Positions 1,884 through 60,058 of a stretch of 64,000 nucleotides of DNA are shown in pieces. The notes beneath the pieces were generated by a model that saw nothing but the letters and a program-made list of their open reading frames with translations, ran no database searches and was not told the origin of the DNA. The translations under genes were made by a program, and so were the position numbers. Location: the NCBI RefSeq assembly GCF_003334765.1, contig NZ_QOWT01000007.1. One strand, given 5' to 3'. How positions within the stretch are numbered: the stretch's first letter is position 1; every line of letters begins with the position of its first letter. The stretch is from Escherichia coli (GTDB lineage: Bacteria; Pseudomonadota; Gammaproteobacteria; Enterobacterales; Enterobacteriaceae).

Positions 1884-2540
1884 TTATTGGTTTACTGCAT
1901 ATACAACCAGAAATTGCAGCGGTGCAGTAATGATGTCCAGCGTAACAGTCACTGGCAGTAATGCTGCGGAAACACCATCCGGAATGCCTCTGGGTGAATA
2001 GTATTCATAAAATCGCACTTTAAATGGATGGTAGAACGCCATCACCTTTGAGTAATCCATGTTTTTATTTTTCTCATGGATTGTGCCTTTTAGGTTTTCC
2101 AGTGACCTGGTACAGTGTTGAACACCACAGGCAAAACCATAATGCGTTGCCAGTGCCTTTTCTTCTTCGTTATTCCAGTAGTAGTAAAGCGATATTGTGC
2201 CGGTAAATTTCTTTTTCCCCGCATTTAAAACAAATCTTGCGTCATCGGCAACCTGAATATTGTGCCGGTTAAGTGCTGGATCATTGAGCATCTTAACGAT
2301 GTCATCGGCACCATCAGTGATAAGGTAATCCAGCGATTCCCCTACAAAAACATAGCCTTTTGTTCCATTACTATCTTTTGCCTGCGATAGCCCAGTGATG
2401 GTGTCTGACTGCGATTGATACTTTCCTGAACTACCCTTTGCGGTATGGGAAACCAGAGCATACGAGATACAGCCTGAAAGCATCAGCGCCAGTGGGAATA
2501 AACCGGCAGCCTTAAAAAATCCCTTAAAATTCAACTTCAT
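1884..2540 (-). CDS. yidX: Lipoprotein YidX
   Basis: Start moved to the internal ATG giving [24 protein letters not shown] (signal peptide plus lipobox LSGC); 218 aa. Confidence 0.75.
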
Positions 2541-2677
2541 GATTAATCCTTTAAACGAGTAGCTAAGCCGTTGAAAGCATACTCTTCTTTCCCTCCTGTT
2601 TAGCGCCTGATATCCCTTTTCAGATTTCTGCCCGACGCATGTCATTTTTTTATGCATTGTTCTTTTTGTGATCTAAA

Positions 2678-2753
2678 TTGTAGTACAACAATATAAGTTT
2701 GTACTACATTACACGCACGGCAAACGCGAACGTCATCACGCTGGTACTACAAA
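2678..2753. promoter_or_regulatory. Three GTA(G/C)TACA palindromic repeats in the dgo promoter region; candidate DgoR (GntR-family) operators
   Basis: TTGTAGTACAACA (2678-2690), TTTGTACTACATT (2698-2710) and CTGGTACTACAAA (2741-2753), 65-140 bp upstream of the dgoR start. Confidence 0.5.
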
Positions 2754-2817
2754 GTTGCCGCGTTATGCATCGATCGGGGTAAAGTAGAGAAGAACATACA
2801 GAGCACAAGGACTCTCC

Positions 2818-3507
2818 ATGACTCTCAATAAAACCGATCGCATTGTCATTACGCTGGGTAAACAGATCGTTCACGGCAAATACGTGCCAGGCTCGCCGCT
2901 TCCGGCTGAGGCGGAACTCTGTGAGGAGTTTGCAACCTCGCGCAACATCATCCGTGAGGTGTTCCGTTCGCTGATGGCGAAGCGGCTGATTGAAATGAAA
3001 CGTTATCGCGGGGCGTTTGTGGCACCGCGTAACCAGTGGAATTACCTCGACACTGACGTACTGCAATGGGTGCTGGAAAATGACTACGACCCACGGCTTA
3101 TCAGTGCCATGAGCGAAGTGCGAAATCTGGTGGAACCGGCGATTGCCCGTTGGGCAGCAGAGCGCGCGACTTCCAGCGATCTGGCGCAGATTGAATCGGC
3201 GCTGAACGAGATGATTGCCAACAATCAGGACCGCGAAGCGTTTAACGAAGCGGATATTCGCTACCACGAGGCGGTGCTGCAGTCGGTGCATAACCCGGTG
3301 TTACAGCAACTTAGCATTGCGATCAGTTCGCTGCAGCGGGCGGTTTTTGAACGAACCTGGATGGGCGATGAGGCCAACATGCCGCAAACGCTCCAGGAAC
3401 ATAAGGCGCTGTTCGATGCGATACGACATCAGGACGGCGATGCGGCAGAGCAGGCGGCGCTTACCATGATCGCCAGCTCGACACGAAGGTTAAAGGAAAT
3501 CACATGA
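2818..3507 (+). CDS. dgoR: GntR/FadR-family transcriptional repressor of the D-galactonate operon
   Basis: 229-aa ORF with an N-terminal winged-HTH and FadR-like C-domain; first gene of the dgoRKADT cluster. Confidence 0.9.
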   Translation: MTLNKTDRIVITLGKQIVHGKYVPGSPLPAEAELCEEFATSRNIIREVFRSLMAKRLIEMKRYRGAFVAPRNQWNYLDTDVLQWVLENDYDPRLISAMSEVRNLVEPAIARWAAERATSSDLAQIESALNEMIANNQDREAFNEADIRYHEAVLQSVHNPVLQQLSIAISSLQRAVFERTWMGDEANMPQTLQEHKALFDAIRHQDGDAAEQAALTMIASSTRRLKEIT

Positions 3508-4382
3508 CAGCTCGCTACATCGCAATTGACTGGGGATCGACCAATCTGCGCGCCTGGCTTTATCAGGGCGACCACTGCCTGGAGAGCAGGCAATCAGAAG
3601 CAGGCGTCACGCGCCTGAACGGAAAATCTCCGGCTGCGGTGTTAGCAGAAGTCACGACCGACTGGCGTGAAGAGAAAACGCCAGTGGTAATGGCAGGAAT
3701 GGTTGGCAGCAACGTCGGCTGGAAAGTTGCACCGTATTTATCTGTTCCTGCCTGTTTTTCGTCTATTGGCGAACAATTAACGTCAGTTGGCGACAATATC
3801 TGGATTATTCCCGGATTATGTGTCTCTCATGACGATAACCACAATGTGATGCGCGGCGAAGAAACACAATTGATCGGCGCGCGAGCTCTGGCTCCTTCCT
3901 CTCTTTATGTCATGCCCGGAACCCATTGCAAATGGGTGCAGGCCGATAGCCAGCAAATCAACGATTTTCGCACCGTGATGACCGGTGAATTACATCATTT
4001 ACTGTTAAATCACTCATTGATTGGCGCAGGTTTGCCGCCGCAGGAAAACTCTGCCGATGCCTTCACAGCTGGCCTTGAGCGTGGTCTTAATACGCCCGCC
4101 ATATTGCCGCAGCTTTTTGAAGTTCGCGCCTCGCATGTGCTGGGAACACTTCCCCGCGAACAGGTCAGCGAATTTCTCTCTGGTTTGTTGATTGGCGCAG
4201 AGGTCGCCAGTATGCGCGACTATGTGGCCCATCAACACGCCATCACCCTTGTCGCCGGAACATCGCTGACCGCGCGCTACCAGCAAGCCTTTCAGGCGAT
4301 GGGTTGCGACGTGACGGCGGTGGCGGGCGACACGGCATTTCAGGCTGGTATAAGGAGCATCGCTCATGCAGTGGCAAACTAA
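3504..4382 (+). CDS. dgoK: 2-dehydro-3-deoxygalactonokinase
   Basis: 292-aa ORF; start overlaps the dgoR stop (ATGA); position and sequence match DgoK. Confidence 0.9.
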   Translation: MTARYIAIDWGSTNLRAWLYQGDHCLESRQSEAGVTRLNGKSPAAVLAEVTTDWREEKTPVVMAGMVGSNVGWKVAPYLSVPACFSSIGEQLTSVGDNIWIIPGLCVSHDDNHNVMRGEETQLIGARALAPSSLYVMPGTHCKWVQADSQQINDFRTVMTGELHHLLLNHSLIGAGLPPQENSADAFTAGLERGLNTPAILPQLFEVRASHVLGTLPREQVSEFLSGLLIGAEVASMRDYVAHQHAITLVAGTSLTARYQQAFQAMGCDVTAVAGDTAFQAGIRSIAHAVAN

Positions 4383-4983
4383 ACTCCCGCTGATCGCCAT
4401 TTTGCGCGGTATTACGCCCGACGAGGCGCTGGCGCATGTTGGCGCGGTGATTGACGCCGGGTTCGACGCGGTTGAAATCCCGCTGAATTCCCCACAATGG
4501 GAGCAAAGCATTCCCGCCATCGTTGATGCGTACGGCGACAAGGCGTTGATTGGCGCAGGTACGGTACTGAAACCTGAACAGGTCGATGCGCTCGCCAGGA
4601 TGAGCTGTCAGCTCATCGTTACGCCCAATATCCATAGTGAAGTGATCCGCCGTGCGGTGGGCTACGGCATGACCGTCTGCCCCGGCTGCGCGACGGCGAC
4701 CGAAGCCTTTACCGCGCTCGAAGCGGGCGCGCAGGCGCTGAAAATATTTCCGTCATCGGCTTTTGGTCCGCAATACATCAAAGCGTTAAAAGCGGTATTG
4801 CCATCGGACATCGCAGTCTTTGCCGTTGGCGGCGTGACGCCAGAAAACCTGGCGCAGTGGATAGACGCAGGTTGTGCAGGGGCGGGCTTAGGCAGCGATC
4901 TCTATCGCGCCGGGCAATCCGTAGAGCGCACCGCGCAGCAGGCAGCAGCATTTGTTAAGGCGTATCGAGAGGCAGTGCAATGA
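4366..4983 (+). CDS. dgoA: 2-dehydro-3-deoxy-6-phosphogalactonate aldolase
   Basis: 205-aa ORF of the KDPG-aldolase family; overlaps the dgoK 3' end by 17 nt. Confidence 0.9.
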
Positions 4984-6128
4984 AAATCACCAAAATTACC
5001 ACGTATCGTTTACCTCCCCGCTGGATGTTCCTGAAAATTGAAACCGATGAAGGCGTGGTCGGTTGGGGCGAGCCCGTGATCGAAGGCCGCGCCCGTACGG
5101 TGGAAGCGGCAGTTCACGAGCTGGGTGACTATTTGATTGGTCAGGATCCATCGCGCATCAATGACTTATGGCAAGTGATGTATCGCGCCGGATTCTATCG
5201 CGGCGGTCCGATCCTGATGAGCGCCATCGCCGGGATTGACCAGGCGTTATGGGATATCAAAGGTAAAGTGCTGAATGCGCCGGTCTGGCAACTGATGGGC
5301 GGCCTGGTTCGCGACAAAATTAAAGCCTACAGTTGGGTTGGCGGCGATCGTCCGGCGGATGTTATCGACGGCATTAAAACGCTACGCGAAATCGGCTTCG
5401 ATACCTTCAAACTGAACGGTTGTGAAGAACTGGGGCTAATTGATAACTCCCGCGCGGTAGATGCGGCGGTTAACACCGTGGCACAAATTCGTGAAGCTTT
5501 TGGCAATCAGATTGAGTTTGGTCTTGATTTCCACGGTCGCGTCAGCGCGCCGATGGCGAAAGTGCTGATTAAAGAACTGGAGCCGTATCGCCCGCTGTTT
5601 ATTGAGGAGCCGGTGCTGGCGGAACAAGCCGAATACTACCCGAAACTGGCGGCACAAACGCATATTCCACTGGCGGCGGGTGAACGCATGTTCTCACGCT
5701 TCGATTTTAAACGCGTGCTGGAGGCAGGTGGTATTTCGATTCTGCAACCGGATCTCTCCCACGCGGGCGGTATTACCGAATGCTACAAAATCGCCGGAAT
5801 GGCAGAAGCCTATGACGTGACCCTTGCGCCGCACTGTCCGCTCGGACCGATTGCACTGGCGGCTTGCCTGCATATCGACTTTGTTTCCTATAACGCCGTA
5901 CTTCAGGAACAAAGTATGGGAATTCATTACAACAAAGGCGCGGAGTTACTCGACTTTGTGAAAAACAAAGAAGACTTCAGCATGGTCGGCGGCTTCTTTA
6001 AACCGTTAACGAAACCGGGCTTAGGCGTGGAAATCGACGAAGCTAAAGTGATTGAGTTCAGTAAAAATGCCCCGGACTGGCGTAATCCGCTCTGGCGTCA
6101 TGAAGATAACAGCGTAGCAGAGTGGTAA
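4980..6128 (+). CDS. dgoD: D-galactonate dehydratase (enolase superfamily)
   Basis: 382-aa ORF starting [31 protein letters not shown]; ATGA overlap with dgoA. Confidence 0.9.
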
Positions 6129-6247
6129 TTCCTGCCACGTAAGCCCCTCATCGGGCACTAAAACAGCAATACAAAAATATAACCCTCTGTAAATTACAGG
6201 GCATGGTGAGCGGCTTCGCTATGCCCAAAATCTGGAGAAAGCTCGCT

Positions 6248-7540
6248 ATGGATATTCCCGTTAATGCAGCAAAGCCGGGGCGTCGGCGTTATCTGACGCT
6301 GGTGATGATCTTTATTACGGTAGTCATTTGTTATGTCGACCGCGCCAACCTGGCCGTGGCTTCCGCCCATATTCAGGAAGAGTTCGGCATTACCAAAGCG
6401 GAAATGGGCTATGTATTTTCGGCCTTCGCCTGGCTTTATACGCTATGTCAGATCCCCGGCGGTTGGTTTTTAGATCGCGTAGGTTCTCGCGTGACTTATT
6501 TTATTGCGATATTTGGCTGGTCAGTGGCGACTTTATTCCAGGGCTTTGCCACGGGCTTAATGTCATTAATTGGTCTGCGCGCGATAACCGGTATTTTCGA
6601 AGCGCCTGCTTTCCCGACCAATAACCGGATGGTGACCAGCTGGTTCCCGGAACATGAACGCGCTTCTGCCGTTGGTTTTTATACGTCTGGTCAGTTTGTC
6701 GGTCTGGCGTTTCTGACGCCGCTGCTGATCTGGATTCAGGAGATGTTGAGCTGGCACTGGGTGTTCATTGTCACTGGTGGTATCGGCATTATCTGGTCGC
6801 TGATTTGGTTTAAGGTTTATCAGCCGCCGCGCCTGACCAAAGGTATCAGCAAAGCTGAACTGGATTACATTCGTGATGGCGGCGGTCTGGTGGATGGTGA
6901 TGCGCCGGTGAAGAAAGAGGCGCGTCAGCCGTTAACAGCCAAAGACTGGAAACTGGTGTTCCATCGTAAACTGATCGGCGTTTATCTTGGGCAATTTGCG
7001 GTGGCTTCTACACTGTGGTTTTTCTTAACCTGGTTCCCGAACTATTTAACCCAGGAAAAAGGAATCACGGCGCTGAAAGCAGGCTTTATGACCACGGTGC
7101 CATTCCTCGCGGCGTTTGTCGGCGTCCTGCTCTCTGGCTGGGTAGCGGATCTGCTGGTACGTAAGGGCTTTTCACTGGGCTTTGCGCGTAAAACGCCGAT
7201 TATCTGCGGCTTGCTGATCTCCACCTGCATTATGGGCGCTAACTACACTAACGATCCGATGATGATTATGTGCCTGATGGCGCTGGCATTCTTCGGTAAC
7301 GGTTTTGCTTCGATTACCTGGTCGCTGGTTTCTTCTCTGGCACCGATGCGCCTGATTGGTTTAACCGGCGGCGTGTTTAACTTCGCCGGTGGTCTGGGCG
7401 GCATCACCGTTCCGCTGGTGGTGGGGTACCTGGCGCAGGGTTACGGTTTCGCACCTGCACTGGTTTATATCTCCGCCGTCGCGTTGATTGGCGCGCTCTC
7501 TTATATCCTGCTGGTGGGCGATGTGAAGCGCGTTGGCTAA
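6248..7540 (+). CDS. dgoT: D-galactonate:H+ symporter (MFS)
   Basis: ORF 6203..7540; ATG at 6248 gives 430 aa ([15 protein letters not shown]...), matching remembered DgoT length. Confidence 0.85.
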
Positions 7541-33855: not shown

Positions 33856-34029
33856 ATTTTTCTCATTTTGATTTTATCAATTTGATTATTATTTATCATA
33901 AAGAAACGTCGCGAGATTATTAAAGAATATCCATTAATGTGCAATTGAAATGTGATAATTATCACTGAACCGTTGTTGTCATTTGTTTTACAAAAGCAAG
34001 GGATTAAATCTCCTCCAATGGACAAAAAA

Positions 34030-59233: not shown

Positions 59234-60058
59234 CTATTTCTTCTCTGTAATTTTTACACTGTTTTCCAACTGCTTGATGCTGACCTGCGGGGTCGGCAAC
59301 TCCTCAGGCATGGTTCCGCCAAGTTCCTGAATGGTTTGCATCACCTTGCTACCCACGTCAAAGTGTGTGGTATTAGCTTGCTGTTTTGAATTCACGCCAT
59401 CCCGCTTGAGTTTTTCTTCTGTTTGGGTAGCTCGAAAGAGATTAGCCGCCAGTTCTGTTGAACCCATATGATCCAGGATCTTCTGATTCTTTTTCAGCCC
59501 CTTCCGCTGATGAATAGCTTTCTGATCTAATCCACCATACAGCCCCTGGTAACCATGATTCTGAAATATGGCGAAATCAGTAGCTGTCGCTACCCCAGCT
59601 TGCTGTGCTGCCTCAACCAATTGTTTGTTATGTTCTTTCAACTCATTTCTCAGAAACAGACGCTTTTCGTCTTCACGAAGTTGCTTAAATGCTTCATCGT
59701 CAGCAAGCTCCTGCCGTCGGGTCTGGATAGCAAAATAAGTCTGCCCTGCCGCAATGACCGGTTTCGCAGGGTCGCCGTTTTGTACTACCAGGTAACAGGC
59801 ATAGCGGGAGAGTACGATGTCTTTTAATGCTCTTTTGGCATTTGAGCCAATTTTGACCATATCGAGGATCTCCTCGAAATGGTCATCAATTGTGTGACCA
59901 CTGTTCTCACAGGCTTCTTTGGCGCGCGTTAATACAGGTATAAAGTGACGATACTCTGAATAACCCAGTAGTTTCCCAAGTTGTCTTGCTGACCATTGTT
60001 CTGCTCCGTTTGCATTAATCAGTTTTATCTCTTCAAAAGGTTGATGATGTTCGTTCAT
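59234..60058 (-). CDS. dinD: DNA damage-inducible protein D
   Basis: 274 aa from MNEHHQPFEEIKL; LexA box 46 bp upstream. Confidence 0.85.
   Translation of the reverse strand: MNEHHQPFEEIKLINANGAEQWSARQLGKLLGYSEYRHFIPVLTRAKEACENSGHTIDDHFEEILDMVKIGSNAKRALKDIVLSRYACYLVVQNGDPAKPVIAAGQTYFAIQTRRQELADDEAFKQLREDEKRLFLRNELKEHNKQLVEAAQQAGVATATDFAIFQNHGYQGLYGGLDQKAIHQRKGLKKNQKILDHMGSTELAANLFRATQTEEKLKRDGVNSKQQANTTHFDVGSKVMQTIQELGGTMPEELPTPQVSIKQLENSVKITEKK

Follow-up and report, generated by a model that had tools for sequence, protein, structure and literature searches.

The locus and its gene context

How many operators for its own repressor does the D-galactonate operon of Escherichia coli, dgoRKADT, carry? 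The question is raised by three short palindromes (S1, S2 and S3) in the intergenic region between the divergent genes yidX and dgoR, upstream of dgoRKADT, on a 64,000-nucleotide stretch of E. coli DNA (contig NZ_QOWT01000007.1, hereafter the window; Table 1). The published experimental model has two sites, IR1 and IR2, and S3 falls outside it.

The gene downstream of the palindromes is dgoR, as given in the original prediction. Many complete E. coli chromosomes contain the 271 bases around the sites with 100% identity, and the RefSeq gene name at this position is dgoR; the encoded protein matches the Pfam domains GntR (7e-14, N-terminal winged HTH) and FCD (3e-27, C-terminal) as well as PDB entry 7C7E, the latter along all 229 residues. 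Three of the four ORFs that follow have NCBIfam matches (2-dehydro-3-deoxy-6-phosphogalactonate aldolase, galactonate dehydratase and D-galactonate transporter). Going by sequence, the site cluster lies within the control region of the D-galactonate operon.

On the other side of the sites, a mechanical ORF call gives yidX (minus strand) as nt 1884–2657, or 257 aa, versus 218 aa in RefSeq, where the start codon is at nt 2538–2540. Taking the RefSeq start at nt 2540, yidX and dgoR are actually separated by 277 bp, and the distance from the divergent yidX start to S1, upstream of it, is about 138 bp. The dgo operon is wholly missing in E. coli 2018-05-2CC (NZ_AP027877.1; locus L081, 3001–3230), where a gene remnant of 114 nt and then cbrA come after yidX. 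The promoter query has a match in 5,425 E. coli genomes, about 400 of which cover less than 80% of it, so that loss or disruption of the region is not rare.

Table 1. Features of the dgo control region and operon (window coordinates; distances are from the dgoR ATG).
Feature	Position (nt)	Strand	Description
Class II CRP site	2667–2682	+	left half TGTGA, 2667–2671; weak right half TTGTA, 2678–2682
S1 (IR1)	2678–2688	.	TTGTAGTACAA, perfect; at -140; overlaps P1 -35 region
S2 (IR2)	2699–2709	.	TTGTACTACAT, one mismatch; at -119; overlaps P1 -10
P1 -10 hexamer	2705–2710		TACATT; overlaps S2
S3 (predicted third DgoR operator)	2742–2752	.	TGGTACTACAA, one mismatch; at -76
Basal promoter P2	2755–2785	+	weak -35-like TTGCCG, 2755–2760; -10 TAAAGT, 2780–2785
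dgoR	2818–3507	+	first gene of dgoRKADT; GntR/FadR-family repressor; 229 aa ORF
dgoK	3504–4382		dgoRKADT, by ORF order
dgoA	4366–4983		dgoRKADT, by ORF order
dgoD	4980–6128		dgoRKADT, by ORF order
dgoT	6203–7540		dgoRKADT, by ORF order

Three copies of an 11-bp inverted repeat

Three near-identical palindromic sites of 13 bp had been described between nt 2678 and 2753. The 13-mers at these coordinates, TTGTAGTACAACA (nt 2678–2690), TTTGTACTACATT (nt 2698–2710) and CTGGTACTACAAA (nt 2741–2753), are indeed present, and beyond chance expectation, but they are in different registers, and the unit common to all three is an 11-bp inverted repeat of 5-1-5 form, TTGTA-N-TACAA. The AT-rich setting that had been ascribed to the sites applies to S1 and S2 (G+C of 0.24 over nt 2640–2710) but not to S3, around which the G+C is 0.53. 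Assignment to the GntR/FadR-type operator pattern holds for the whole set. The motif of the FadR subfamily consists of TKGT and ACMA boxes with 3 nt between GT and AC, and DgoR has been named among the regulators that use it (PMC4494728); S1 reads TTGT-AGT-ACAA, S2 TTGT-ACT-ACAT and S3 TGGT-ACT-ACAA.

The pattern TKGTASTACAW has 5 strand-hits in the window of 64 kb, where shuffled sequences lead one to expect 0.12, and a count of 5 or more was reached in 0 of 100 shuffles. When TTGTANTACAA is searched with at most one mismatch there are 5 sites against 1.48 expected, 3 of which fall within 75 bp, and the Poisson probability that 64 kb contains any 75-bp stretch with at least three sites is estimated at about 6e-5. 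The two remaining matches at this threshold are isolated and probably fortuitous: one (nt 59780–59790, TTGTACTACCA) is inside the dinD coding sequence, and the other (nt 33983–33993, TTGTTTTACAA) has no GTA/TAC core. They do illustrate that single occurrences of a short AT-rich palindrome arise by chance, which is what could be said for reading the three motifs as a chance cluster. The probability of such clustering, the shuffled controls, the conservation of all three repeats among 79 promoters (see below) and the direct experimental evidence for S1 and S2 (PMC6003448) refute that reading, and the chance that it is correct is negligible.

The centres of S1 and S2 are separated by 21 bp, those of S2 and S3 by 43 bp, and those of S1 and S3 by 64 bp. 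As these distances correspond to 2.0, 4.1 and 6.1 helical turns, the three repeats lie on the same face of the DNA.

Published binding of DgoR to S1 and S2

S1 is the DgoR operator known from the literature as IR1, and S2 is IR2, without any difference in sequence. IR1 and IR2 at the dgoRKADT promoter are reportedly also described by Singh et al. 2019 (J Bacteriol 201:e00281-18) and Arya et al. 2021.

The dgoR promoter was mutagenised and analysed by Sort-Seq by Belliveau et al. 2018 (PNAS; PMC6003448). In that paper a repressor-type footprint is placed at -140 to -110 from the dgoR ATG, which converts to nt 2678–2708 of the window, i.e. to S1 and S2. The footprint vanishes in a dgoR deletion strain and in D-galactonate, and DgoR was captured by DNA affinity on DNA spanning -145 to -110. 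According to work from the Chaba laboratory, DgoR binds as a dimer to a pair of inverted repeats that lie close together and overlap the promoter; IR1 is perfect (CTAAATTGTAGTACAACAATAT) and IR2 has one mismatch. EMSA gave an apparent KD of about 0.5 uM, and DgoR is released by D-galactonate (PMC11705089; PMC12288454). Galactonate-sensitive binding of DgoR to a 250-bp promoter fragment was also reported by Lin et al. 2020 (PMC7674646). The two-site model was current up to 2025, with a 55-nt EMSA probe described as spanning both inverted repeats (PMC11705089; PMC12288454). The oligomeric state described for DgoR is a dimer, and no tetramer is known (PMC11705089).

Promoter elements around the repeats

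A simple scan for sigma-70 promoters and terminators over nt 2400–3000 returned nothing at threshold, and the promoter elements were therefore taken from the Sort-Seq paper and from conservation. For the inducible promoter, P1, that paper shows a TGTGA logo at -160 to -140 from the ATG, interpreted as class II activation with the right half of the CRP site where a -35 element would be, and gives the wild-type -10 as TACATT, which is non-optimal (PMC6003448). In the window this right half, TTGTA (nt 2678–2682), doubles as the left arm of S1. The sequence TGTGATCT is almost invariant in the 79 promoters compared (1.81 bits per column). Given the CRP centre at 2674.5 and the geometry of class II sites (-41.5), the P1 start would lie near nt 2716, which would put the centre of S1 at about -33, that of S2 at about -12 and that of S3 at about +31.

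The CRP site also contains a GATC (nt 2670–2673), the A of which is at -147 from the dgoR ATG. This matches the position of the single hemimethylated GATC of Salmonella dgoR, which is at -147 within a putative CRP site; ON/OFF heterogeneity of dgoR in Salmonella is influenced by Dam methylation and CRP (PMC7708049).

The Sort-Seq paper also describes another site for RNA polymerase, distinct from P1, which spans -30 to -70 relative to the ATG and is visible in glucose-grown cells (PMC6003448). The hexamers TTGCCG and TAAAGT (P2) are the probable counterparts of this site in the window. TAAAGT is part of GGTAAAGTAG (nt 2778–2787), which is nearly invariant across Enterobacterales, and itself scores 1.91 bits per column. 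The conservation extends beyond the hexamer to the flanking GG and AG, and the 10-mer as a whole is more conserved than most of the leader. That GGTAAAGTAG could be the -35 element of a sigma-28 promoter was considered and rejected, as no GCCGATAA follows it. With TAAAGT as the -10 of P2, the centre of S3 would be at about -45 from the P2 start. S3 itself was rejected as the -35 of P2, because the 27 bp between S3 and TAAAGT is the wrong spacing.

Conservation across Enterobacterales

A scan with the DgoR protein, using one genome per species, retrieved 80 Enterobacterales loci with 79–99% protein identity, 78 of which had enough upstream DNA. For column statistics, 79 promoters were aligned with MAFFT and the information per column was expressed in bits. 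Both S1 and S2 were detected in 77 of the 78 loci, at a constant distance of 21 bp; the exception is Tatumella (L074), in which S1 is degenerate. Across the 79 promoters S1, S2 and S3 carry 1.94, 1.76 and 1.62 bits per column, while the S1–S2 and S2–S3 spacers carry 0.63 and 0.51. Conservation of the repeats in orthologous promoters, which the original prediction had put forward as a test of its reading, was thus observed for all three.

S1 is a perfect repeat in 73 of the 79 promoters. Exactly one mismatch is present in S2 in 72 promoters and in S3 in 67, and S3 is perfect in none (0/79). Of the single mismatches in S3, 51 fall in the right half and 16 in the left; shuffled controls for S3 never had fewer than two mismatches. 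The spacing between S2 and S3 is 43 bp in 70 of the 79 promoters; in the others it is 42 bp (6 promoters) or 44 bp (3 promoters). In most genera the S3 position reads TTGTACTGCAA or TTGTACTTCAA, and in Escherichia, Salmonella, several Citrobacter and the Klebsiella oxytoca group it is T(A/G)GTA(C/G)TACAA. Its central base is C or G depending on genus, in keeping with the N of the motif. In the loci furthest removed (Pantoea, Tatumella and Affinibrenneria), S3 is decayed. Within E. coli, divergent alleles with 94–97% identity over the region have altered spacers but unaltered S1, S2 and S3.

Status of the third repeat

All three repeats had been predicted before. The FadR sheet of S1 File in Suvorova, Korostelev and Gelfand 2015 (PLoS One 10:e0132618; PMC4494728) gives three DgoR sites for E. 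coli b4479, namely CTAAATTGTAGTACAACAATA, TAAGTTTGTACTACATTACAC and CACGCTGGTACTACAAAGTTG, the last being the DgoR_ECO row that corresponds to S3. Three predicted sites each are also given for E. fergusonii, Enterobacter 638, Cronobacter sakazakii, Klebsiella pneumoniae, Shigella flexneri, Salmonella Typhimurium and Serratia proteamaculans, and the third-site forms TTGTACTGCAA and TTGTACTTCAA are present in the same table (PMC4494728). The three sites are the same as those described here, but the source is a table of predictions, to which the present analysis adds the spacing, the constant single mismatch and the position relative to two promoters. S1 and S2 are thus experimentally proven sites, the three together are a published prediction, and the feature as a whole was already known. 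A search of the literature found no DgoR binding experiment on S3, the sequence of which is absent from the main texts of the DgoR papers searched, and gave nothing specific on ChIP-exo, SELEX or DAP-seq data for DgoR.

In Shigella flexneri (SF3769, row DgoR_SFL; PMC4494728) the first operator is given as TTGTAGCGCAA, with a mutation in the TAC arm of S1, which elsewhere hardly varies. This could reflect a derepressed or decaying dgo operon in that lineage.

In the original prediction all three repeats were likely sites of autoregulation by DgoR. The published footprint, affinity capture and EMSA bear this out for S1 and S2, while S3 stands as a predicted, conserved operator. The cluster itself is real, and its interpretation as a set of DgoR operators is supported.

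A different function for S3 deserves consideration, namely that it is no working DgoR operator and has been kept for P2, as an upstream or extended -35 determinant, or for another factor, with control exerted by S1 and S2 alone. In the Sort-Seq text the segment from -30 to -70, which reaches into the right arm of S3, is attributed to RNA polymerase, and a repressor shift is described only at -140 to -110, with none at -76 to -66 (PMC6003448); the published experiments are also explained with IR1 and IR2 alone (PMC11705089; PMC12288454). Moreover, S3 has conserved neighbours unlike DgoR half-sites: TCACG at nt 2736–2740, TG(A/C)GG after S3, and GGTAAAGTAG. The internal structure of S3 speaks for DgoR instead. 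In the 67 of 79 promoters with a single mismatch, one full half-site and four of the five positions of the other are always kept, and the mismatch switches halves between clades, which fits a dimeric reader of a palindrome and not a promoter hexamer. In addition, S3 ends at least 5 bp upstream of any placement of the -35, it is held at 43 bp from S2 and in helical phase with it, and an independent comparative genomics study assigned it to DgoR (PMC4494728). A role of S3 that does not involve DgoR is accordingly considered unlikely, and a third DgoR operator remains the preferred reading.

The flanks of S3 have features of their own. TCACG(T/C) just upstream is conserved, and TG(A/C)GG is found just downstream in most genera; at the latter position (nt 2755–2760) E. 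coli has TTGCCG instead, which provides a better -35-like TTG. In many genera the flanks (ctcacgt...aagtgagg) form an inverted repeat with a possible 5-bp stem, and conservation around S3 might on that ground be attributed to RNA structure in the P1 leader of about 100 nt, such as a CUCAC...GUGAG hairpin. RNAalifold, applied to 30 diverse leaders, predicted zero consensus pairs and an energy of 0, the E. coli leader is no more stable than its shuffles (z = -0.59), and E. coli does not have the flanking inverted repeat, its sequence there being agttgccg. An RNA structure around S3 was rejected on the RNAalifold result for 30 species and the z value, and is very improbable.

Taken together, it is very probable that DgoR dimers acting at S1 and S2 control dgoRKADT and that S3 is a third, sub-optimal operator of the same protein.

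A model for dgo control

As the literature shows, DgoR dimers occupy S1 and S2 when D-galactonate is absent. The bound protein covers the right half of the CRP site, together with the P1 -35 region, and the -10 TACATT, so that both RNA polymerase and CRP are kept out. As dgoR is the first gene of the operon, DgoR thereby represses itself. D-galactonate, again according to the literature, binds the C-terminal FCD domain and causes DgoR to leave the DNA, upon which cAMP-CRP activates P1.

S3 most likely serves as a weak auxiliary operator, placed on the same face of the DNA as S1 and S2, and its most likely effect would be to raise local DgoR occupancy. This might come about through cooperative or looping contacts with the dimers at S1 and S2, or S3 might act as a downstream block to transcripts from P1; it may also tune P2, the presumed source of the basal DgoR level. 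The phasing of 21, 43 and 64 bp is compatible with bridging but is no proof of it. Assemblies larger than one dimer have precedents in the family, namely the tetramer of Atu1419 and the binding of NanR to direct repeats (PMC11705089). P2 is active in glucose, when DgoR is bound, according to the Sort-Seq paper (PMC6003448), and this indicates that S3 does not strongly repress P2. A more specific proposal, which we put forward only tentatively, is that S3 is a functional, deliberately weakened third operator, held by selection one mismatch short of a perfect palindrome, that either bridges over the short, in-phase distances of 43 or 64 bp to the dimers at S1 and S2 or, as FadR does at fabA, positively tunes P2 from about -45. 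If S3 is functional, the two-site experimental model would be incomplete, and if it tunes P2, DgoR would keep the inducible promoter repressed and at the same time maintain its own basal production.

The finding is a rediscovery of the textbook-level D-galactonate control region of E. coli, and by itself is of little import. What interest remains lies in setting two-site EMSA probes, molecular-dynamics models and the interpretation of reporters against a third site of fixed phase and fixed, sub-optimal strength. S3 could refine quantitative models of dgo induction, dgo being a gold standard in Sort-Seq and Reg-Seq. There is also a relevance to gut colonisation, as dgoR variation affects the use of D-galactonate by strains.

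Comparison with known systems

The arrangement of a strong operator at the promoter with weaker, in-phase operators, one of them downstream of the transcription start, would be analogous to lac O1/O2/O3 and gal OE/OI. LacI is a tetramer, and GalR forms loops with the help of HU. DgoR, in contrast, is known only as a dimer (PMC11705089). The dgo distances of 43 and 64 bp are also shorter than the natural loops of lac (92 bp) and gal (113 bp), and looping by DgoR is hypothetical.

A closer relative is FadR of E. coli, which has in common with DgoR the fold family (winged HTH and FCD), the motif class TKGT-N3-ACMA and the binding of a dimer to a palindrome. FadR, the type member of the subfamily, is a dual regulator, and its activation of fabA depends on a site near -40. 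S3 would have a similar position with respect to P2, and we know of no report of activation by DgoR. The two regulators differ in effector, which is acyl-CoA for FadR and a sugar acid for DgoR, and FadR has a single site per target, whereas the dgo control region has two proven sites and a predicted third.
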